Of a stretch of DNA of 14,359 nucleotides, positions 209-14,216 are shown piece after piece (positions within the stretch are counted from its first letter, which is position 1; every line of letters starts with the position of its first letter). The DNA is from a virus. The position numbers and the translations under genes are program-made. The notes below the pieces were generated by a model. That model was not told the origin of the DNA. It saw only the letters and a list, made by a program, of their open reading frames with translations, and made no database searches. The stretch lies in UHGV virus genome UHGV-0236088; one strand, written 5' to 3'.

Positions 209-240
209 AACAAAGCAAAAACCCGGCGCGGGGGCCGGGT
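209..240 (-). terminator. Intrinsic terminator-like hairpin plus T-tract immediately upstream of the holin RBS (tR'-like)
   Basis: Minus strand reads CCCGGC-CCCCGC-GCCGGG (239-222), a perfect 6 bp GC stem, followed by TTTTTGCTTTGTT (221-209), then GGAGG and the holin ATG. Confidence 0.5.
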
Positions 241-477: not shown

Positions 478-660
478 TTATAGGTCGCTCACCCTCACCA
501 GTTTACCAGCATCAAGAAATATTTTGATTGTTTCTCGCGTAGTCTTAATGATTGGCGATACCCACTCGCCACAGCCAACGCGGATACGAATATCATCACC
601 TTCCACGCGGTAAAACAACCTGTCGACTACTGTTGCTGCGTACACACCATCTTCAATCAT
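478..660 (-). CDS. Hypothetical protein, 60 aa
   Basis: ORF track entry. AAGGAG 8 nt upstream of ATG at 660. ATGA overlap with the stop of the upstream gene. Confidence 0.5.
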   Translation of the reverse strand: MIEDGVYAATVVDRLFYRVEGDDIRIRVGCGEWVSPIIKTTRETIKIFLDAGKLVRVSDL

Positions 661-857
661 TTCTTGCGCTCCTTAATGGCCCGCATGATGTTGATGCGCA
701 TAGCATCAGCGAAAGCGTATATTGTAATGAAAGGCCAGAAAACCAACTCAAACCAAATAACGCCGTCACTACCTACAGCTTTCTGAAGAGCGCCCATTAA
801 AACTACACCAGCAAGGTAAAGGAGAACTACCGCAATAATAAGACATTCAATCATCAT
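657..857 (-). CDS. Small membrane protein, about 66 aa, two predicted transmembrane helices
   Basis: Translation is dominated by hydrophobic runs (IIAVVLLYLAGVVLMGAL and WFELVFWPFITIYAF). Tandem ATG ATG start with GAGGG upstream. Confidence 0.45.
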   Translation of the reverse strand: MMIECLIIAVVLLYLAGVVLMGALQKAVGSDGVIWFELVFWPFITIYAFADAMRINIMRAIKERKK

Positions 858-1104
858 CGCCCTCGTCTTCTTGTTCAGCTAGGAAATAATCAACTACGCG
901 GTAAGTCACTGGCGGGATGTATTCGAAATCATCCGAATCAAGATCAAGCGTCCGGCTGTCGCCGTCGTCGTCCATTGTGTTCATTCCCAACTCACCGAAA
1001 GGGCCGTACCCAATGTGGCCCAGATATTCGCAACCAATCGTAAAGCCAGGATATTCGCGTTTACATCTGACTTTATACAGCTTATTTGATGCGCTCAATT
1101 TCAA
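847..1104 (-). CDS. Hypothetical protein with a strongly acidic C-terminal half
   Basis: ORF track entry. The last 42 residues contain 17 Asp/Glu and 2 Arg. Start is uncertain: TTG at 1104 or 1098 (GAGGGG just upstream), or ATG at 984. Confidence 0.4.
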   Translation of the reverse strand: MKLSASNKLYKVRCKREYPGFTIGCEYLGHIGYGPFGELGMNTMDDDGDSRTLDLDSDDFEYIPPVTYRVVDYFLAEQEDEGDDD

Positions 1105-1405
1105 CCCCTCTGTTTTCTGCTTCAGTCATTTTGTATTCTGCAACCAGTTCAGCGCCAAGCAATTCCACTTCCATATCAGCGATACCCTGGAACATCAGAT
1201 AGGCAAAAACTAGGCTTTTAATTCTATCCAGGTCTTCAAGATGGTCTGCGTCAAAAGGCGGTTCAGATACGTGGAAGCATTTAACGTGCGCGTCGTCTTC
1301 AGTAGCCACACGGAAACATGCGCCGCGTTTACCTGCGAATTGTCCAATTTCTTTATCTTCTGGAAAAGATCCACGGAAAACTTTAACACTGATAAATTTA
1401 GACAT
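1082..1405 (-). CDS. Hypothetical protein, 107 aa
   Basis: GAAGGAGAG 7 nt upstream of ATG at 1405. No family recognised. Confidence 0.55.
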   Translation of the reverse strand: MSKFISVKVFRGSFPEDKEIGQFAGKRGACFRVATEDDAHVKCFHVSEPPFDADHLEDLDRIKSLVFAYLMFQGIADMEVELLGAELVAEYKMTEAENRGVEIERIK

Positions 1406-2293: not shown

Positions 2294-2518
2294 TTATGCT
2301 TCTTCCGTAAAAGTAACCTTCATCGCCCCATCCGAACTACGGACAACATAACGACCAATACCGCCTAGCGGCCCTGCATACCATAAGTGACCGTAAGTGT
2401 CAGTCACGACGATAAACGGAAACTTAGGCGACAACCCCATCGGTTTTTCAGCCGTATACTGTGCGCCTTCTTCAAAACAGCCTAATTTCGATTCGTTACA
2501 CGTTAAAATCATTTTCAT
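2294..2518 (-). CDS. Small protein, 74 aa, member D of a four-gene tandem paralog array
   Basis: ATGA overlap with the upstream gene. Shared blocks FEEGAQY and IVVTDTYGHLWYA. Confidence 0.5.
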   Translation of the reverse strand: MKMILTCNESKLGCFEEGAQYTAEKPMGLSPKFPFIVVTDTYGHLWYAGPLGGIGRYVVRSSDGAMKVTFTEEA

Positions 2519-2754
2519 ACCCCTACATACGAAAACGCAGCAAAAGCACCACCACCAGCACGCGCATAAACAAGTGCCGTGCCATACCCCATCTTATAAA
2601 ATCGCCATAACTGACCCTGGTCGTCAGTAATGGCATGAATATATTCCTGATCCTTTGCGTCAACCAATGCCGCGCCAACCTCGTAGATCTTGCCATTCTT
2701 AAAAAACGCGCTGCATCGTGAGTATGTGCACTGGTATCTATGTTTCCGATTCAT
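2515..2754 (-). CDS. Small protein, 79 aa, paralog C
   Basis: GAGGTG upstream of ATG at 2754. Shared blocks FKNGKIYEVG and HAITDDQGQLWRF. Confidence 0.5.
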   Translation of the reverse strand: MNRKHRYQCTYSRCSAFFKNGKIYEVGAALVDAKDQEYIHAITDDQGQLWRFYKMGYGTALVYARAGGGAFAAFSYVGV

Positions 2755-2764
2755 AGCACCTCAC

Positions 2765-3022
2765 TTATTCCGGTTTACTGCCTTCGCGGGCGCAAAACTC
2801 CGCGATCTCACGGAAATCATGCACTATGCGATAAATATACAAACCAGCGGCGTTATTGATATGGCTAACATAAGCGAAATAAACTTTATCATCATCGCCA
2901 GTTATCGCCATTGCACCATCACCGCCCGGTGCGCCGTGGAGTTGAACGCCGCAATAGATCTTCCCTTCTTCAAAAATATTGCGGTCGCGCGTCTGCAATA
3001 CCTCAAAATATAAATGTTTCAT
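2765..3022 (-). CDS. Small protein, 85 aa, paralog B (start moved to internal ATG)
   Basis: AAAGGGG 6 nt upstream of ATG at 3022 (MKHLYF...). Shared blocks FEEGKIYCGV and MAITGDDDKVYFA. Confidence 0.5.
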   Translation of the reverse strand: MKHLYFEVLQTRDRNIFEEGKIYCGVQLHGAPGGDGAMAITGDDDKVYFAYVSHINNAAGLYIYRIVHDFREIAEFCAREGSKPE

Positions 3023-3032
3023 TGTTGCCCCT

Positions 3033-3245
3033 TTAATAACGTTCAAAGCTGGCAGCAAAACCTACACCGGATATTTCACCGCCTTCATAGCTCGGCCTGA
3101 ATACCCATATTTCGTCATGATTATCAATCAAGGCAAGGCAATTACTCATTGTGTGTGCTTCATTGCCATAAACGATGTGAACGTCATAAATACTCCCAAT
3201 CGTGAAAACACTGTCATTGCTTGAGTATGAGCATTTAACTTGCAT
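3033..3245 (-). CDS. Small protein, 70 aa, paralog A
   Basis: AAAGGGG upstream of ATG at 3245; TGATG overlap with the upstream stop. Shared blocks FTIGSIY and ALIDNHDEIWVF. Confidence 0.5.
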   Translation of the reverse strand: MQVKCSYSSNDSVFTIGSIYDVHIVYGNEAHTMSNCLALIDNHDEIWVFRPSYEGGEISGVGFAASFERY

Positions 3246-3496
3246 CAGAAAACCCCTTTATAATCGACCGTGTATTTTGCCACTAATTTCCATTCACAAT
3301 AGTTTTCCATGTCGCGAGGTTGCCAACCCTTCATCCCTACCGCACTCCGCGCAGCGTGACGGCGATAATAATCGTTATGGCTAGCTATGCACCACGGGTA
3401 CAGGACAAACATATATCCTGCCTCGTTAACCAGGATCGCCATCCGCTTTCCAGTTGCCTTATCTTTCGCCCGGAAATAACTTACCTTGATTTTCAT
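3245..3496 (-). CDS. Hypothetical protein, 83 aa
   Basis: GAGGTAA 7 nt upstream of ATG at 3496. Confidence 0.5.
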   Translation of the reverse strand: MKIKVSYFRAKDKATGKRMAILVNEAGYMFVLYPWCIASHNDYYRRHAARSAVGMKGWQPRDMENYCEWKLVAKYTVDYKGVF

Positions 3497-3707
3497 TTTT
3501 AATTACCTCGATCAGCATTTCTTCTTCCAGGTTAGCCGGGCGTTTACGAAATATCCCGGCAAAAACCAAATCATCCAGGTATCCTTTAGTGCAAAACAGC
3601 TTTTCTTCTCTCACCCCGTCAGAATCGCATCTATAAGCCTTTCCATTTATCAGAAAATAAAAGCTATAAGATGAAGGTGCCAGGCAAACATCCTCGTAAA
3701 CGTCCAT
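3459..3707 (-). CDS. Hypothetical protein, 82 aa
   Basis: GAGGGT upstream of ATG at 3707. Overlaps the next gene by 38 nt. Confidence 0.45.
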   Translation of the reverse strand: MDVYEDVCLAPSSYSFYFLINGKAYRCDSDGVREEKLFCTKGYLDDLVFAGIFRKRPANLEEEMLIEVIKNENQGKLFPGER

Positions 3708-3711
3708 AATA

Positions 3712-3939
3712 TTAACCCTCGACTACTTCCAGCCCGCGTCCCTTATCGCCAACGAAGTCGCCCAGGCTGAACGTATACGACCATGCCGGATTTATGTAAT
3801 GGTCATCAGCACCAGCGGCAATGAGATCAGCACCATTAATCATGCAAGTAATCTCATCGCTATGAACGACATTAACGACCTTACCAACAACCTGTTTCAA
3901 TGACGGGTAGCCGTGATCGTGCAAGAATTTAACTTTCAT
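3712..3939 (-). CDS. Hypothetical protein, 75 aa (start moved to internal ATG)
   Basis: AAGGGAAAG 6 nt upstream of ATG at 3939 (MKVKFLHDHG...). The longer ORF-track start has no RBS. Confidence 0.45.
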   Translation of the reverse strand: MKVKFLHDHGYPSLKQVVGKVVNVVHSDEITCMINGADLIAAGADDHYINPAWSYTFSLGDFVGDKGRGLEVVEG

Positions 3940-4222
3940 ATTTCTTTCCCTTGTAAGTAACAGCATCAGCGATAAGCAATACCGCCAGCATTTCTCCGTC
4001 ATGCAACGGGTCTGGAATAGCAAAAAATATGTCGCTGTTTTTGTCCGGCACTACTACGCGCATATTGCCTTGTTTGTCTTCATGAACAAACCACGGCTTT
4101 TCGTGTGGCTCAAACATACCGAAAAGCAATTTAAGATCTATTTCTTCTCCCTTCGTGAATAACGATACATCCGTTGTAGCGATAACTAACGCTTTCTGAT
4201 CTGCTGCTTTCTTTGCTTTCAT
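3929..4222 (-). CDS. Hypothetical protein, 97 aa
   Basis: GGAGG upstream of ATG at 4222; ATGA overlap with the upstream stop. Confidence 0.5.
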   Translation of the reverse strand: MKAKKAADQKALVIATTDVSLFTKGEEIDLKLLFGMFEPHEKPWFVHEDKQGNMRVVVPDKNSDIFFAIPDPLHDGEMLAVLLIADAVTYKGKKYES

Positions 4223-4462: not shown

Positions 4463-4693
4463 TTATGCAGTTGTGTAGCTGTCTACCAGCTTTTCATCCT
4501 TCATTCTTGCAAGCTGTGCAATGTTCATCGTGTAGCCGCCATCAGAGAAAAGCCACTCCGCAGCCTTGCGACGAAAAACAATATCATCATGGTTGTGCGT
4601 CCATGTAGCGATAACCACGCGCTTTCCGTCAGTGGCAAACATTGTTAATTCATTATCAACTACGTCGATAGCCTGCCATATTTTTAGCTCCAT
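4463..4693 (-). CDS. Hypothetical protein, 76 aa
   Basis: GGGGA 7 nt upstream of ATG at 4693. Confidence 0.5.
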   Translation of the reverse strand: MELKIWQAIDVVDNELTMFATDGKRVVIATWTHNHDDIVFRRKAAEWLFSDGGYTMNIAQLARMKDEKLVDSYTTA

Positions 4694-6035: not shown

Positions 6036-6225
6036 CCTTCACCTCGCGACGATAGATTTCTACTGGCTTAACCGGAATAGCGTTAAAATCCCCTTCATCC
6101 AGTGCGGCAATAAACGTTAGCGCCAACCGTGCTTCAACACCGCTTAAATACTTGCACCATGCATCACCGTTATAATCTTCAAAAAGAATAATCACTTTTT
6201 TCATGTTTATCTCTTGTTGTTTCAT
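6025..6225 (-). CDS. Hypothetical protein, 66 aa, translationally coupled to Q
   Basis: TAATG overlap with the Q stop codon. An alternative ATG at 6204 would give MKKVIILF.... Confidence 0.45.
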   Translation of the reverse strand: MKQQEINMKKVIILFEDYNGDAWCKYLSGVEARLALTFIAALDEGDFNAIPVKPVEIYRREVKDEA

Positions 6226-6947
6226 TATTCACCCCGTGTCACTCGTTTAATTTCGTTATCAGCCTGCGCCTCTTCTTTGAACAATTCAGCAATGGCGTCT
6301 TCATAGAAAGCACGGTATTTCTTCCACCACGTTGATCGGCTTACCGGAAATACAAGCTGATTAACCGCACGCCGGACAAGATCTACAGGGAAACGCGAGT
6401 ACCCGCGCCCGCCGCAATGCTGGCACGTTTTGAACACTGGCATTTCCGCTGCTTCACTGGCTGCTTTATCCGGTATCTCGCCGCGCCCTTTGCATCGTTT
6501 ACAATGATTGCGAACTTTTCCATGCCCCTTGCATTTTTTGCAAAGGTGTTTTTCTCCGTAGTCGTCAAACGTAAATTTATATCCGCCGCAATCCATACAA
6601 GTTTTTTCTGTCGCGGCACTCTGGCAGTAATCCCGAAACGCGAAAACGGCAACAAGAATAATAAGATCATTGCGTTTGTCCTCGTCCAGCTCCATGATGT
6701 ATTCGTAATCTTTTGCCATAGCTCTTAAACGCTCTGTAAGCAAAACTACGGCCCTGTGTTTTTCGGCTTGCGATAATTCCATCTTCCCTAAAAAAGCGCT
6801 ATAACCAAGCTCTACGCGCGATTGCGCCATACCTGCTGCGGTTAGTGCATCAGTAGTATTAAGCGAGTCTGGGGACGTGCCCCGGCTTTCATCTGACAAA
6901 CGCGGTGATTTTGGGAGGTGGAATTTAAGAATAGATTCCAAATTCAT
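6225..6947 (-). CDS. Late-gene antitermination protein Q (Phage_antitermQ-type)
   Basis: 240 aa. N-terminus MNLESILKFHLPKSPRLSD..., the segment MAQSRVELGYSAFLGKMELSQAEK, DYCQSAAT, several CxxC pairs, GYSRFP and the C-terminal KEEAQADNEIKRVTR match the Q family of Stx and Qin-type lambdoid phages as I recall it. GGGGG RBS. Confidence 0.7.
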   Translation of the reverse strand: MNLESILKFHLPKSPRLSDESRGTSPDSLNTTDALTAAGMAQSRVELGYSAFLGKMELSQAEKHRAVVLLTERLRAMAKDYEYIMELDEDKRNDLIILVAVFAFRDYCQSAATEKTCMDCGGYKFTFDDYGEKHLCKKCKGHGKVRNHCKRCKGRGEIPDKAASEAAEMPVFKTCQHCGGRGYSRFPVDLVRRAVNQLVFPVSRSTWWKKYRAFYEDAIAELFKEEAQADNEIKRVTRGE

Positions 6948-8485: not shown

Positions 8486-9250
8486 TCAGTCCGGTAAAAC
8501 GCGGTTAAGCGTAGTACGATTGATGGCCCGGTCGTTAGCCAGGAATACAGCACGGGCAAAGCCGCGCGGCGTTAGTGAGCGGATCATCTTAGTGCGTTTC
8601 GACTTTCCTCCTAACTTCGCGTGCTGTTTGCTGTCTTCCCATTCATCCGGCATAGGTACAGGCCGGAATAGCGGCTGCTTAAATCCATTCCCGCACCAGA
8701 TACAAGTTTTCTTCGTGTATGCGTCGCGGTCGGCGATGTATTCCGGGAAAGCAGGATGTTTGTCGTCTTCCGGCAGGTAGCCACCGTAAGCGCACGGATT
8801 GAAGATAAAATCCGGCTTACGCCATAACGTTGACAGTGCGCCCACCGGATTTTCCACCATCCACGGGACGTGATACATGTCAGCCAGCGTTTCTACCAGT
8901 TTTGCGTTATATGCCGCCTTCACCTGGAAGTCAGGATCTTTTTCACGCTTGCTGGCAAACCAACGAGCGCCGGACACGGCTAGATGGTCGCATGGCGGGA
9001 AGGCCAGAATAATGTCAGGATCTGGATAAACAGACAAATCAGGGGAGAACATCACCAGGAAATGGCTGTCAATCCATACGTTAACGTATTCAATATTCGG
9101 ATGAATGATTTTTACGCCTTCATAGTCGCCGTGGTTAGCGCCGTCATAGTTGAAGCAATAACACTTATAGCCAGCGTCAGCCCAATCTTTAACGGCGTAC
9201 CCGCTGCCGTCGTACAACGACCACACCACCCAATTTTTAAGCCCGCTCAT
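8486..9250 (-). CDS. C5-cytosine DNA methyltransferase-like protein (short, atypical motifs)
   Basis: 254 aa. Motif I-like SLYDGSGYAV, followed by AGYKCYCFNYD; motif IV-like AFPPCDHLAVSG (PPC where PCQ is usual); motif VI-like MVENPVGALS (ENP where ENV is usual). GAGGG RBS. ATGA overlap with the upstream gene. Confidence 0.5.
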   Translation of the reverse strand: MSGLKNWVVWSLYDGSGYAVKDWADAGYKCYCFNYDGANHGDYEGVKIIHPNIEYVNVWIDSHFLVMFSPDLSVYPDPDIILAFPPCDHLAVSGARWFASKREKDPDFQVKAAYNAKLVETLADMYHVPWMVENPVGALSTLWRKPDFIFNPCAYGGYLPEDDKHPAFPEYIADRDAYTKKTCIWCGNGFKQPLFRPVPMPDEWEDSKQHAKLGGKSKRTKMIRSLTPRGFARAVFLANDRAINRTTLNRVLPD

Positions 9251-10072: not shown

Positions 10073-10231
10073 TCATACATCAAGCGTGGTTAAATCTGCC
10101 CCCTTCTTAGCGTTGTAAATAGTGGCTATTTTTGGCGCTGATTTTTCCTCTTTTTTGTCGTAGCCGTTTTGCTTACCTCTTTGCTCTATGGTTTCTGATG
10201 CAAGTCTTAATAAATCTGCTGCCTTAGTCAT
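10073..10231 (-). CDS. Small protein, 52 aa; possibly the N-terminal part of a TGA-interrupted gene
   Basis: ATG at 10231 overlaps the stop of the methyltransferase gene. Translation MTKAADLLRLASETIEQRGKQNGYDKKEEKSAPKIATIYNAKKGADLTTLDV then TGA. Confidence 0.35.
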   Translation of the reverse strand: MTKAADLLRLASETIEQRGKQNGYDKKEEKSAPKIATIYNAKKGADLTTLDV

Positions 10232-10763
10232 TATTTGCGCCTCTCGCGTATAGCTCTTTACGTGTTATCTGCGTGAAAATACATTCATGTCTGCACCGTG
10301 GATGCCAGATCAAGAACAAGCTCCCTTTATTGTTTCCGCTTGCTGGTTTCCCTGTCGCGGCATTTATAAAAGCCAGCCGCCCGCGCGTAATTAATCGGCA
10401 TTCGTTTGCCGTCTCCACGCCGTTCATAAACCAGTTAACAGAAATGTCAGCGGGCAATAACATTACACAGCCAATGTGATTTCGTTGATGTTCAAGCGCC
10501 GCCTTATCAACGAATGGCCCCGGATTAGAATATGGCGGATTCATCCAGACATACTCACCAGGCATCGCCACCGCTCCCCACGGATAATGGAGCGTGTCCA
10601 TTTCTTCGGTTATATATCGCGGTATTAATGCGTTTGCCTTGTTTGCCGCCACATCCGCGACGAATTCGAATTCCAGATCCATTCCTCTAAAAACAGGTTT
10701 CGGCGTCTGCCATAGGTCTTTTATTTCTTTCGGCGTGTTGCTGCCGCCGTAATCATTTTTCAT
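10224..10763 (-). CDS. Phage Dam-family DNA N6-adenine methyltransferase
   Basis: 179 aa. WQTPKPVF near the N-terminus and the catalytic NPPY (VWMNPPYSNPGPFV) are the signature of the small phage Dam family (T1-type). AAGGGGG RBS. Confidence 0.8.
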   Translation of the reverse strand: MKNDYGGSNTPKEIKDLWQTPKPVFRGMDLEFEFVADVAANKANALIPRYITEEMDTLHYPWGAVAMPGEYVWMNPPYSNPGPFVDKAALEHQRNHIGCVMLLPADISVNWFMNGVETANECRLITRGRLAFINAATGKPASGNNKGSLFLIWHPRCRHECIFTQITRKELYARGANND

Positions 10764-12686: not shown

Positions 12687-13019
12687 TTATAGTGGGTGAT
12701 GCCATTTCATTTCTGTTTCTGAATTAAGCGGGTTTCCTTCGCTTGAAAGGAATAAATCACGCTCCCGTTTCAGTTCTTCCGGGCTTATTTCTATTTCATC
12801 AATCTGACCGAACGATCCCGGCATCATTCGTTTTAAATCAGATAGCGGACGCATAAGGCCGCAGCCGCGTAACAGCATATCGACCGCGAATTGTCTACGT
12901 CCGGCGGCGTCATTAAAGCGCCGTGCCCAGGGCACAACCACGATCCTGCGTTCGAATTCGATAAATAGTGATAGCTTGTTTGTTTCGCTATCATATGCTA
13001 TATGGAATTTAATTTTCAT
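12687..13019 (-). CDS. Hypothetical protein, 110 aa
   Basis: GAGGTG upstream of ATG at 13019. Confidence 0.5.
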   Translation of the reverse strand: MKIKFHIAYDSETNKLSLFIEFERRIVVVPWARRFNDAAGRRQFAVDMLLRGCGLMRPLSDLKRMMPGSFGQIDEIEISPEELKRERDLFLSSEGNPLNSETEMKWHHPL

Positions 13020-13937: not shown

Positions 13938-14216
13938 TTAATCGTTAATGACCTGGCCCATACGCCCGCGATATTTGCGCATACGTGGATCGACATATTC
14001 AGGCCAATGCATATCCGGTTTTCTTTGCAGTGGGTAAAAACTTGCCTGCCAGTTGTCGAACCATATTTGCTTTGCGTACAGGTCACTAAATCTTTTCGCC
14101 ATCCGATCCGCTGCCGTGCCGCATAAAAAAAGCCCGCGATCGATTTGATCACGGGCTTCTCTTAAAACTTTCTCTTTTGTTCGCGGCGGCGGTGGTGCTT
14201 TTAAATAATTACCCAT
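13938..14216 (-). CDS. Hypothetical protein; start uncertain (92 aa from ATG 14216, or 54 aa from ATG 14102)
   Basis: ORF track entry. The long form would be translated through the terminator-like hairpin at 14124-14158; the short form MAKRFSDLYAKQIWF... starts just downstream of it. Confidence 0.4.
   Translation of the reverse strand: MGNYLKAPPPPRTKEKVLREARDQIDRGLFLCGTAADRMAKRFSDLYAKQIWFDNWQASFYPLQRKPDMHWPEYVDPRMRKYRGRMGQVIND
14124..14158 (-). terminator. Intrinsic terminator-like hairpin downstream of ssb
   Basis: Minus strand AAGCCCG (14158-14152), 15 nt loop, CGGGCTT (14136-14130), followed by a T-run ending TTTTTTTAT at 14124. Lies about 75 nt past the ssb stop. Confidence 0.5.

Follow-up and report, generated by a model that had tools for sequence, protein, structure and literature searches.

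Ocr and ArdA block type I restriction-modification systems, and Ocr also acts against BREX; both are elongated helical or alpha/beta dimers, larger than the protein described here, and the carboxylates of Ocr trace the course of bent B-DNA. CarS1 of Myxococcus xanthus, an 86-residue protein with a pI of 4.1, sequesters the DNA-recognition helix of a repressor, and the structure of CarS (PDB 2KSS) shows a five-stranded SH3-like fold in which acidic residues are arranged round a hydrophobic pocket (PMC2926617). In Enterococcus phage phi47, TifA (Orf65) inhibits BrxU and other type IV restriction enzymes by direct binding; it comprises 135 residues in two globular domains, of which the N-terminal is SH3-like, about 21% of its residues are acidic, and its authors refrain from describing it as a DNA mimic (PMC11322646). 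The gene considered here lies in a window of 14,359 nucleotides, the whole stretch of DNA analysed, from the virus genome UHGV-0236088, and an original prediction based on composition had likened its acidic product to the Ocr and ArdA decoys.

The open reading frame at 847-1104, from which that prediction started, was confirmed on the minus strand, but its start has to be shifted to the TTG at 1098. This codon is kept in 12 of 12 orthologous loci, which are 84-96% identical at the DNA level and carry a GGAGGGG/GGGGGA Shine-Dalgarno sequence 6-9 nt 5' of it, while the codon at 1104 is not conserved and encodes W, Q, R or L in relatives. By this comparison translation begins at the conserved TTG at 1098, not at 1104, and yields a protein of 83 residues. 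The gene and its surroundings are arranged as follows.

847-1098, minus strand: corrected coding sequence, 83 amino acids plus TGA stop, with the TTG start at 1098-1096 (coordinates confirmed by translation)
1105-1110, minus strand: Shine-Dalgarno sequence GAGGGG, 6 nt 5' of the TTG start and within the 3' end of the upstream gene; a purine-rich Shine-Dalgarno sequence occupies the equivalent site in relatives
1082-1405, minus strand: upstream gene for a 107-residue acidic protein (phrog_23107), its stop 14 nt within the coding sequence of the target
657-857, minus strand: downstream gene for a 66-residue membrane protein (phrog_10061), its ATG overlapping the last codons of the target (GATGATGATTGA)
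221-240, minus strand: strong intrinsic terminator, ACCCGGCCCCCGCGCCGGGT followed by TTTTTGC, which separates the holin gene from the array of small genes

The overall dN/dS ratio of the coding sequence is 0.15, falling to 0.12 over codons 2-38 and 0.08 over codons 39-61, and the 83-residue protein is real, conserved and under purifying selection. Since the N-terminal half is itself under such selection, the versions of 45-46 residues found in GenBank and RefSeq are truncated, and a recurrent annotation error, in which an 83-residue protein is called as a gene of 45-46 residues, is thereby corrected. Among the PHROGs v4 profiles the protein matches phrog_25234 (residues 3-85 of the 85 in the longer open reading frame against positions 1-83 of 83, E 1.1e-53, 180 bits), which has no assigned function in that release; it was the only family found, and no profile match to a family of unrelated role was obtained. 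The family is small and restricted to mEp021-like (mEpimmI) E. coli phages and prophages, being found in 26 of 5426 complete E. coli genomes. Four of the eight matching phage records, which correspond to seven related phages, contain the gene, mEp010 and mEp044 possess it and mEp021 itself lacks it, and full-length forms dominate the 58 clusters. Only 17 matches were returned when 1.84 billion representatives were searched with the family profile, and besides the family these include four barrel-only relatives and four repeat proteins of the Big_9 type. The gene is an accessory gene of a small group of temperate coliphages.

In all contexts seen, the gene is positioned two to five genes 5' of the holin-endolysin-spanin lysis cassette and is followed by the gene for the 66-residue membrane protein, sometimes with a 43-residue open reading frame inserted between the two. 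The counterpart of the terminator is annotated as T9 in mEp010 and as TERM_5 in mEp021, and a promoter is proposed at about 379-406. The gene sits in a hypervariable array of small genes, and arrays of this type are the usual site of phage inhibitors of host proteins. However, it is not obvious that the array is a block for early host takeover, since a neighbouring gene in it has an mEp021 orthologue whose product carries the annotation of a virion structural protein.

The acidic composition noted in the original prediction was borne out by a recount, in which 17 of the last 42 residues (MDDDGDSRTLDLDSDDFEYIPPVTYRVVDYFLAEQEDEGDDD) are Asp or Glu against two Arg and no Lys, giving a net charge of about -15.5. 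The N-terminal 43 residues of the longer open reading frame are basic (pI 9.1), and the 83-residue protein as a whole contains 20 acidic residues (24%), has a pI of about 4.1 and is the most acidic product of the window, where Asp and Glu make up 13.7% of the other 45 products and the next most acidic stretch of 42 residues holds 12. The probability of at least 17 acidic residues in 42 is 1.7e-5 for a single 42-residue segment and 0.044 when corrected for the 2629 segments, so that composition by itself is only marginally beyond chance within the window. Conservation of the acidity is the stronger argument: an acidic excess of 10-20 (median 15) is seen in 44 of 44 aligned homologues, among which conservation reaches 90% or more at D43, D44, D47, D54, D57, E59, D70, E75, D78 and D82. 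The acidity does not, however, form a single uniform C-terminal tail, as residues 43-61 make up the final two strands and the loops of a predicted folded barrel and only residues 62-83 belong to an extension beyond it, in the following layout.

916-1077, minus strand: SH3-like beta-barrel predicted by AlphaFold2, residues 8-61, with strands at 8-12, 24-31, 37-42, 48-51 and 58-61
958-972, minus strand: turn DDDGD of the beta3-beta4 hairpin, residues 43-47, with D43, D44, G46 and D47 at least 90% conserved
922-945, minus strand: beta4-beta5 connection and start of beta5, DLDSDDFE, residues 52-59, with D54, D57 and E59 at least 90% conserved and F58 invariant
877-915, minus strand: extension, residues 62-74, PPVTYRVVDYFLA, clade-specific and modelled at low confidence as an amphipathic helix
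850-876, minus strand: polyacidic tip EQEDEGDDD, residues 75-83, the mean pLDDT of the last block being about 50

The five-stranded SH3-like barrel is confidently predicted, the AlphaFold2 model having an overall mean pLDDT of 80.5 and averages of 88-95 in the 10-residue blocks over residues 11-60. The best Foldseek matches in the PDB are SH3, Tudor, PetP and R67 DHFR structures, all weak (E 0.05-0.9, TM 0.3-0.5; for the first three kinds E 0.05-0.5 and TM 0.4-0.5), and the best viral structural match is a 58-residue protein of phage LL5 (E 6.7e-5, TM 0.82). About half of the acidic residues are held by barrel loops that are also found in tail-less relatives. The D-D-x-G turn recurs in these relatives and in the paralogs of the window and looks like a turn motif of the whole family, which could be purely structural, and at the position of DLDSDDFE the tail-less relatives show ID(L/F)ETEDF. 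The barrel region contains 12 Asp or Glu against 6 Lys or Arg and the extension 8 against 1, and because both parts of the protein are acidic, the barrel itself is unlikely to be a nucleic-acid binder.

Beyond the barrel, residues 67-77 are drawn as a helix by AlphaFold2, with mean pLDDT values of 67 and 56 for the blocks over residues 61-80. The extension, in which P62, D70 and F72 are invariant, has a dN/dS of 0.26 and a hydrophobic moment of 1.04 as a helix versus 0.26 as a strand, and it is missing from the relatives of 52-58 residues. The tip, by comparison, occurs in 25 different forms among the 44 homologues, of 7-10 residues and 83% Asp or Glu, and its dN/dS of about 1.35 reflects mainly exchanges between Asp and Glu. 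A composition that is kept while the sequence drifts is the pattern that would be expected of a functional polyanion.

The 52-58-residue proteins of LL5 and of phages of about 46-48 kb (P0061-P0063 and P0067; UniProt A0A2Z4Q2J7) are true homologues of residues 9-58 and have the DDDGDxR hairpin and the ExEDF motif in common with the target, but they stop right after beta5, and neither the acidic tip nor the PPVTY...FLAE extension is present. In P0061 and P0063, the two loci viewed, the barrel-only gene directly follows a HAD/PNKP-like gene and is not located beside a lysis cassette. These LL5-type proteins are likewise uncharacterised. Related barrels are also encoded within the window itself.

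3033-3245, minus strand: closest barrel paralog, 70 amino acids, barrel HMM score 33 bits
2294-2518, 2515-2754 and 2765-3022, minus strand: weaker barrel paralogs, barrel HMM scores 10.5, 15.7 and 10.9 bits, respectively
3929-4222, minus strand: fifth, weak barrel paralog, 97 amino acids, matching phrog_33175, barrel HMM score 12.7 bits

Shuffled controls (n=2300) reached at most 7.5 bits with the same HMM, and the scores of the paralogs at 2294-3022 exceed every shuffled and plus-strand control. For the paralog at 3033-3245, alignment of the target's family profile (A2) with A3 by hhalign gave a probability of 91% (E 1e-6, 24 columns); as the structural model of this paralog is unusable (mean pLDDT 52.9), kinship in fold is drawn here from sequence profiles. 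The upstream 107-residue gene was rejected as a further barrel paralog at -1.1 bits. Chimeric or truncated open reading frames are common, for example fusions to the C-terminus of the Q-like protein or of the open reading frame 305-454, and in one of them (P0048) the N-terminus of the upstream 107-residue protein is fused to the C-terminal module of the target, probably by way of a short microhomology of the GACGACG type. Retention of the C-terminal module in chimeras was rejected as evidence of selection, since no further paralog follows the target in the array and a deletion between any paralogs would therefore keep the 3' half of the target. The array, with six related mini-barrels and frequent chimeras in other prophages, is a natural illustration, in compact form, of the way in which very small proteins are diversified by phages.

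Searches for a known function gave no Pfam match for the target at E<=1, no match in NCBIfam or PADLOC, nothing among all PDB sequences at E<=10 with the family profile, and no enzyme family, signal peptide or transmembrane segment. Nor was any Ocr, ArdA or other DNA-mimic family of Pfam found at E<=10 for the 44 family members, and no DNA-mimic structure appears among the top Foldseek matches in the PDB. The original prediction had claimed no homology, and none to Ocr, ArdA or any characterised decoy emerged from Pfam, NCBIfam, PADLOC or the PDB sequences; its likening of the protein to Ocr and ArdA in particular finds no support in profile matches at E<=10 or in the all-beta predicted fold. 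Short interaction motifs were considered by eye as well, namely the beta-clamp consensus QL[SD]LF, the FtsZ C-terminal peptide DIPAFLRKQ and the SSB tip DDDIPF. The beta-clamp candidate TLDLD was dropped, as it has no terminal Phe and forms part of the predicted strand beta4, VDYFLAEQ has only FL..Q in common with the FtsZ peptide, and the tips of the family end in D (some in YD or HD), none of them in a hydrophobic residue, which led to rejection of an SSB-type tip.

One explanation of the charge is that the protein is a true anti-restriction DNA mimic of the Ocr/ArdA kind, with rigid carboxylates copying the phosphate backbone and blocking type I restriction-modification, BREX or a similar system. 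An acidic residue content of 24%, a pI of about 4.1 and a small accessory phage gene would fit, and the annotation of close relatives includes an abc2 anti-RecBCD gene and two orphan DNA methyltransferases, which indicates that the phage already invests in anti-restriction. However, the all-beta fold does not agree with it, nor does the failure of every member to match a profile of Ocr or ArdA at E<=10, and nine of the acidic residues are placed in a tip that is modelled at low confidence and variable in sequence, unlike a rigid mimic. The DNA-mimic reading is a composition-based hypothesis that was not refuted, although in this strict form we regard it as improbable. Unlikely, too, is an adaptor or regulator acting between proteins with no nucleic-acid mimicry, for instance a partner of the 66-residue membrane protein that tunes lysis timing or superinfection exclusion, in which the tip serves solubility or auto-inhibition. 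The constant position 5' of the lysis cassette, the membrane protein gene next to it with overlapping frames in the window, and the general use of SH3-like barrels as interaction modules (PMC11322646) all speak for such a role, but the 43-residue open reading frame parts the two genes in several genomes, so that their coupling is not conserved, a strong terminator, probably with a late promoter, divides the array from the lysis genes, and so extreme a conserved charge would be left without a reason.

The Asp-rich loops may alternatively bind Ca2+ or Mg2+ in a mini-domain that goes back to a bacterial repeat of the Ig-like or cadherin-like (Big_9) kind. Indeed, the sole matches outside the family among the 1.84 billion representatives are Big_9/Cadherin_4/Cadherin_5 repeat proteins, in which F-x-Y-x-P-x3-aromatic-x3-D-x-F and a preceding Asp-rich loop (PF17963, PF17892 and PF17803) align with residues 38-78; the invariant F58, Y60, P62, D70 and F72, together with Y66, match the hallmark spacing F-x-Y-x-P...aromatic...D-x-F exactly, hhalign gave a probability of 40% (E 2.9e-4, 33 columns) with repeat units chosen because they already matched, and DDDGDS loosely resembles a DxDxDG loop. 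Single repeats, however, score 8-13 bits and the whole-protein E-values are inflated by summing near-identical repeats, the 44 members have no Big_9 or Cadherin match in Pfam (the same three families) at E<=10, and position 3 of the loop varies among A, H, N, E and C in homologues. A calcium loop of the EF-hand/DxDxDG type was rejected, as position 6 of DDDGDS is Ser and position 3 is variable. The E. coli cytoplasm moreover contains very little free Ca2+, which also counts against cation binding, and Big_9 repeats are extracellular units of about 90 residues in giant adhesins, their likeness to the target being at the motif level only. A cation-binding domain is accordingly judged very unlikely. 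Hardly credible is the notion that the protein has no current function and is a recombination remnant or by-product of a fast-shuffling paralog array; many chimeric and truncated versions exist and half of the related phages lack the gene, but strong purifying selection extends over 75 codons, the start codon and Shine-Dalgarno sequence are kept in the 12 loci, and full-length forms predominate in the clusters.

The reading preferred here, tentatively and at somewhat less than even odds, is that the protein, as a polyanion, binds a basic host protein stoichiometrically. On this view it is a cytoplasmic accessory protein of 83 residues from temperate coliphages of the mEp021-like (mEpimmI) group, begun at a TTG and translationally coupled to its neighbours, in which the barrel (residues 8-61) with two conserved acidic loops represents a phage-specific family present in several tandem copies. 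Having no catalytic activity and working stoichiometrically, it would use the barrel and the amphipathic segment for specific contacts, while the acidic loops and the polyanionic tip would occupy and block the basic nucleic-acid-binding surface of a host, or possibly phage, protein, in the manner of an electrostatic decoy that is flexible, not of a rigid replica of B-DNA. That the target binds another protein, that this partner in turn binds nucleic acid, and any part in anti-defence or host takeover are what we infer. A bolder extension, to which we give little credence, is that mEp021-like coliphages have a tandem family of SH3-like mini-proteins that recombine with one another, and that the protein is its tailed end-member. 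Unequal recombination at the shared D-D-x-G hairpin would then join different target-recognition halves to one constant polyanionic effector module, and the protein would be a new class of SH3-fold, flexible-tail nucleic-acid mimic that disables a nucleoid protein of E. coli or one of its DNA-targeting defences. Should the decoy reading prove true, an SH3-fold, flexible-tail type joins the short list of phage polyanionic inhibitors, and its source is temperate coliphages common in the human gut; if it is wrong, the target is one more conserved hypothetical phage protein.

Compared with the described systems, the protein resembles Ocr and ArdA in its high content of Asp and Glu, its low pI and its carriage by a phage or mobile element, but it differs from both in having part of its charge in a flexible tip. 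Unlike Ocr (PF08684), it is modelled as a five-stranded barrel with one uncertain helix and has no Ocr-like Foldseek match in the PDB, and unlike ArdA (PF07275), which is larger and multi-domain, it is a single barrel of 83 residues with no Pfam match. With TifA the likeness is one of design only, both being small, acidic (about 21% versus 24%) and equipped with an SH3-like domain. Homology was rejected, as hhalign of the family profile with the phi47 open reading frame that is the likely TifA, which was picked by its length (135 residues), acidity (21.5%) and Leu32, gave a probability of 0.14%, and the barrel HMM did not return that reading frame at E<=10. CarS is a cellular regulator rather than a phage protein and carries no polyacidic C-terminal tip; no relation to it was detected with the family profile among PDB sequences at E<=10, and 2KSS falls outside the top 50 Foldseek matches. 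The two are similar in length (86 versus 83 residues) and in a pI of about 4.1 and may share a five-stranded SH3-like fold, five strands being predicted with high pLDDT for the target, and CarS provides the best precedent for the mode of action of an acidic SH3-like decoy.

The minus-strand ORF at 847..1104 is real, and its last 42 residues hold 17 Asp or Glu, two Arg and no Lys, as counted in the original prediction; their net charge is about -15.5, and the first 43 residues are basic. Against a background of 13.7% D+E in the other 45 products of this DNA stretch, none of which exceeds 12 acidic residues per 42, such acidity has a P of 1.7e-5 per 42-residue stretch, or 0.044 when corrected for all such stretches, and by itself the composition is only marginally beyond chance. 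The acidic excess is 10-20 in all 44 aligned homologues, with most single Asp/Glu positions at least 90% conserved, and because of this conservation the feature is accepted as real.

The acidic observation is thus confirmed, with a corrected start. The TTG at 1104 chosen originally is not kept, as orthologous loci carry Trp, Gln, Arg or Leu codons there, and the TTG at window position 1098 is invariant in 12 orthologous loci, with GGAGGGG or GGGGGA 6-9 nt upstream. Across the 12 loci, estimates by the Nei-Gojobori method differ along the gene:

dN/dS by segment, 12 orthologous loci
Codons 2-38, upstream of the internal ATG: 0.12
Codons 39-61, end of the barrel: 0.08
Codons 62-75, extension: 0.26
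Codons 76-end, acidic tip (changes mostly D/E swaps): 1.35

In both halves of the gene the variable sites cluster at third codon positions, which together with the conserved TTG and the dN/dS values indicates a protein of 83 aa (847..1098, minus strand). Its start overlaps the end of an upstream 107-aa gene and its stop overlaps the ATG of a 66-aa membrane protein. In several relatives an extra acidic ORF of ~43 aa (MEEWYKNLL...GGEDD) lies between the gene and that of the membrane protein (L002 2346-2477, mEp010_70; also loci L004, L006, L008-L011 and L013), which breaks the start/stop overlap seen in the window. In the MagusPhagus annotation the product starts at the internal ATG and is just 45-46 aa long; PGAP makes the same call in four of eight E. 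coli genomes examined and gives 81-83 aa in the other four, and phanotate has a split or shortened gene in mEp010 and mEp044. Public gene calls are inconsistent; many are of 43-59 aa or misplaced and so leave out the conserved TTG start as well as the N-terminal half, which is under selection:

Inconsistent annotations of the gene, by locus in relatives
L001, 2344-2484
L002, 2478-2609
L007, 1619-1756
L009, 1618-1752
L011, 1621-1755
L012, 1618-1758
L014, 1576-1755

An AlphaFold2 model built on the 44-sequence alignment (mean pLDDT 80.5, block means 88-95 over residues 11-60) predicts five strands, at residues 8-12, 24-31, 37-42, 48-51 and 58-61, and, far less certainly, a helix at 67-77 and the tail (pLDDT 67, 56, 50). 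Foldseek searches against the PDB returned weak matches (E 0.05-1, TM 0.3-0.5) to SH3, Tudor, PetP, KOW-type ribosomal proteins and R67 DHFR, which point to the fold class of small SH3-like barrels and to no specific relative. Among predicted viral structures an uncharacterised 58-aa protein from phage LL5 matches best (E 6.7e-5, 44% identity, TM 0.82), the rest being other small uncharacterised phage proteins. On this model the acidic half resolves into three components, namely in-barrel loops, an extension and a tip:

Acidic segments of the protein
Residues 43-47: beta3-beta4 hairpin DDDGD, within the barrel
Residues 52-59: beta4-beta5 connection DLDSDDFE, within the barrel
Residues 62-74: amphipathic extension PPVTYRVVDYFLA; P62, D70 and F72 invariant
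Tip of 7-10 residues: 83% D/E, 25 different sequences among 44 homologues

Since the barrel region (12 D/E vs 6 K/R) and the extension (8 vs 1) are both acidic, nucleic-acid binding by the barrel itself is unlikely.

The protein belongs to phrog_25234 (function unknown), which it matches over the full length. Searching 5.8 billion proteins by word index gave 58 clusters, with all source names E. coli, bacteriophage or Caudoviricetes, and only 17 of 1.84 billion representatives were matched in an exhaustive HMMER profile search, those beyond the family being four giant surface proteins and four barrel-only proteins of 52-58 aa. The latter carry the DDDGDxR and ExEDF motifs and end directly after beta5; at the two loci examined (L016 3236-3939, L017 4516-5171), in phages of ~46-48 kb, they (P0061, 58 aa; P0063, 56 aa) lie directly downstream of a HAD/PNKP-like phosphatase gene and overlap its stop. 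The gene is present in four of eight matching phage records, representing seven related phages, and in 26 of 5426 complete E. coli genomes, where it is chromosomal and single copy; it is absent from mEp021, which has only eight ORFs between Q and holin.

Along most of the window the sequence shares 86-88% identity with the Escherichia phages MagusPhagus, mEp010, mEp013, mEp044, mEp515, mEp554 and mEp021, Nus-dependent, non-lambdoid temperate 'mEpimmI' coliphages whose variable genes are mostly placed in the regulation cluster (2025; PMC11893012). All window genes are on the minus strand. Gene order in close relatives runs from an N-like antiterminator, Erf, SSB and abc2 through small ORFs with two DNA methyltransferases to NinG, RusA and the Q-like antiterminator (window 6225-6947), followed by ~25-30 small ORFs and, just past window position 1, by holin, endolysin and spanin; the acidic protein is encoded by the fourth gene upstream of holin. 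The Q-like protein contains CxxC repeats, and its 240-aa counterparts at L003 and L004 match PF03589 (Antiterm) and, weakly, a DnaJ-type zinc-finger signature. Two orphan methyltransferase genes lie in the same operon (8486-9250 and 10224-10763, minus strand), their mEp021 equivalents being annotated as cytosine and N6-adenine methyltransferases, and ORF 13938-14216 occupies the position annotated as the anti-RecBCD gene abc2 in MagusPhagus; the phage is thus already equipped with several counter-defence functions. A further paralog pair lies 8 kb apart (12687-13019 and 4463-4693, minus strand; blastp E 2e-6, 29% identity over 65 aa), both members being matched by the mEp021_38 orthologue.

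A strong intrinsic terminator (240-221, minus strand), annotated at the same site in mEp010 and mEp021, separates the small-ORF array from holin, and ~140 nt before it lies a sigma-70-like, promoter-like site (406-379, minus strand; ATGACA-16-AATATT). The next small ORF follows the Q-like gene directly, leaving no intergenic room for a late promoter. By analogy with lambda pR'-tR', which the arrangement resembles despite the 6 kb to the Q-like gene, the late promoter may lie at 406-379, and the array, with the acidic protein's gene in it, would be read from upstream in an early-right transcript that also holds Q. At odds with the latter reading, array ORF 3459-3707 (minus strand, 82 aa) is orthologous, at 70% identity, to mEp021_41, whose annotation as a virion structural protein is odd for a gene between Q and the lysis cassette.

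A barrel HMM built from the protein, its divergent N-terminal variants and barrel-only relatives detects five paralogs within the array; controls peaked at 7.5 bits (2300 shuffled products) and 1.6 bits (69 plus-strand ORFs):

Barrel paralogs in the array, all minus strand
3033-3245: 33.0 bits
2515-2754: 15.7 bits
3929-4222: 12.7 bits
2765-3022: 10.9 bits
2294-2518: 10.5 bits

They have in common the pattern x-K-C...F..G..Y...h-h-D-D-x-G; none was assigned to a family of known function, and mEp021 lacks all five. Profile-profile comparison with the 3033-3245 family gave 91% probability (E 1e-6) over 24 columns only, and the structure model of that paralog is too poor for use (pLDDT 53). Chimeric ORFs in other E. 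coli prophages (homologues P0042, P0044, P0045, P0046, P0048, P0050, P0054, P0055, P0057 and P0059; loci L003-L005) fuse the acidic protein's segment from DGDSRTL to the C-terminus to foreign N-terminal strands, donated by a paralog, the upstream 107-aa gene or an mEp021_44-like gene, or, conversely, attach its N-terminus to a C-terminus taken from the Q-like protein or from ORF 305-454. Such fusions indicate frequent deletion and recombination inside the array; it is no proof of selection on the C-terminal module, since the acidic protein is the last paralog and any such deletion keeps its 3' half. The tandem mini-barrel array is arguably more interesting than the protein itself.

The four giant matches are Big_9/Cadherin_4/Cadherin_5 repeat proteins, with whose hallmark dGsFtYtP..GFsGvDsF residues 38-78 (window 850-975, minus strand) align, the invariant F58, Y60, P62, D70 and F72 and also Y66 being identically spaced. 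Should this reflect descent, residues 62-78 may form a strand in place of the helix modelled at low confidence, and Ca-binding loops may be the origin of the Asp-rich ones. Yet single Big_9-type repeats score 8-13 bits only, the whole-protein E-values arising from summed near-identical repeats; hhalign of the family against 29 repeat units gave 40% probability, no family member matches the Big_9/Cadherin Pfam models, and a DxDxDG reading is weak as the loop positions vary among homologues. The resemblance is treated as one of motif level, and a cation-binding remnant of an Ig-like repeat seems very improbable.

Our tentative preference is for a non-enzymatic, stoichiometric binder that would mask a basic surface on a host protein, probably a surface that binds nucleic acid. 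Specificity would come from the barrel together with the amphipathic segment, and that surface would be covered by the acidic loops and the flexible polyanionic tip. An adaptor linked to the neighbouring membrane protein or to lysis is distinctly less likely, though wherever the gene is found its position is constant, shortly before the 66-aa membrane protein and lysis cassette. The original prediction of an Ocr- or ArdA-like DNA mimic, a composition-based hypothesis, is as such neither supported nor refuted; a specific likeness to those proteins is not borne out, as Ocr, ArdA and other DNA-mimic families gave zero matches at permissive thresholds and the predicted fold is not of their type, so that a rigid Ocr-like anti-restriction mimic is improbable. 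That the protein is a functionless product of recombination is scarcely credible.

For a masking binder, precedents exist. CarS1 of Myxococcus (86 aa, pI 4.1) captures a repressor's DNA-recognition helix by acidic residues around a hydrophobic pocket (PMC2926617), and TifA of Enterococcus phage phi47 (135 aa, 21% acidic, SH3-like N-terminal domain) binds and inhibits type IV restriction enzymes (PMC11322646). Neither is homologous to the acidic protein: hhalign against the phi47 ORF identified as TifA gave 0.1% probability, and the family profile matched nothing among PDB sequences, CarS1 included. These precedents make a decoy mechanism possible for this fold, but do not establish it for the present protein. 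The family, uncharacterised but catalogued, is a variation on an established theme, that of the small acidic phage protein, and its design in common with CarS1 and TifA is that of a small acidic SH3-like binder.
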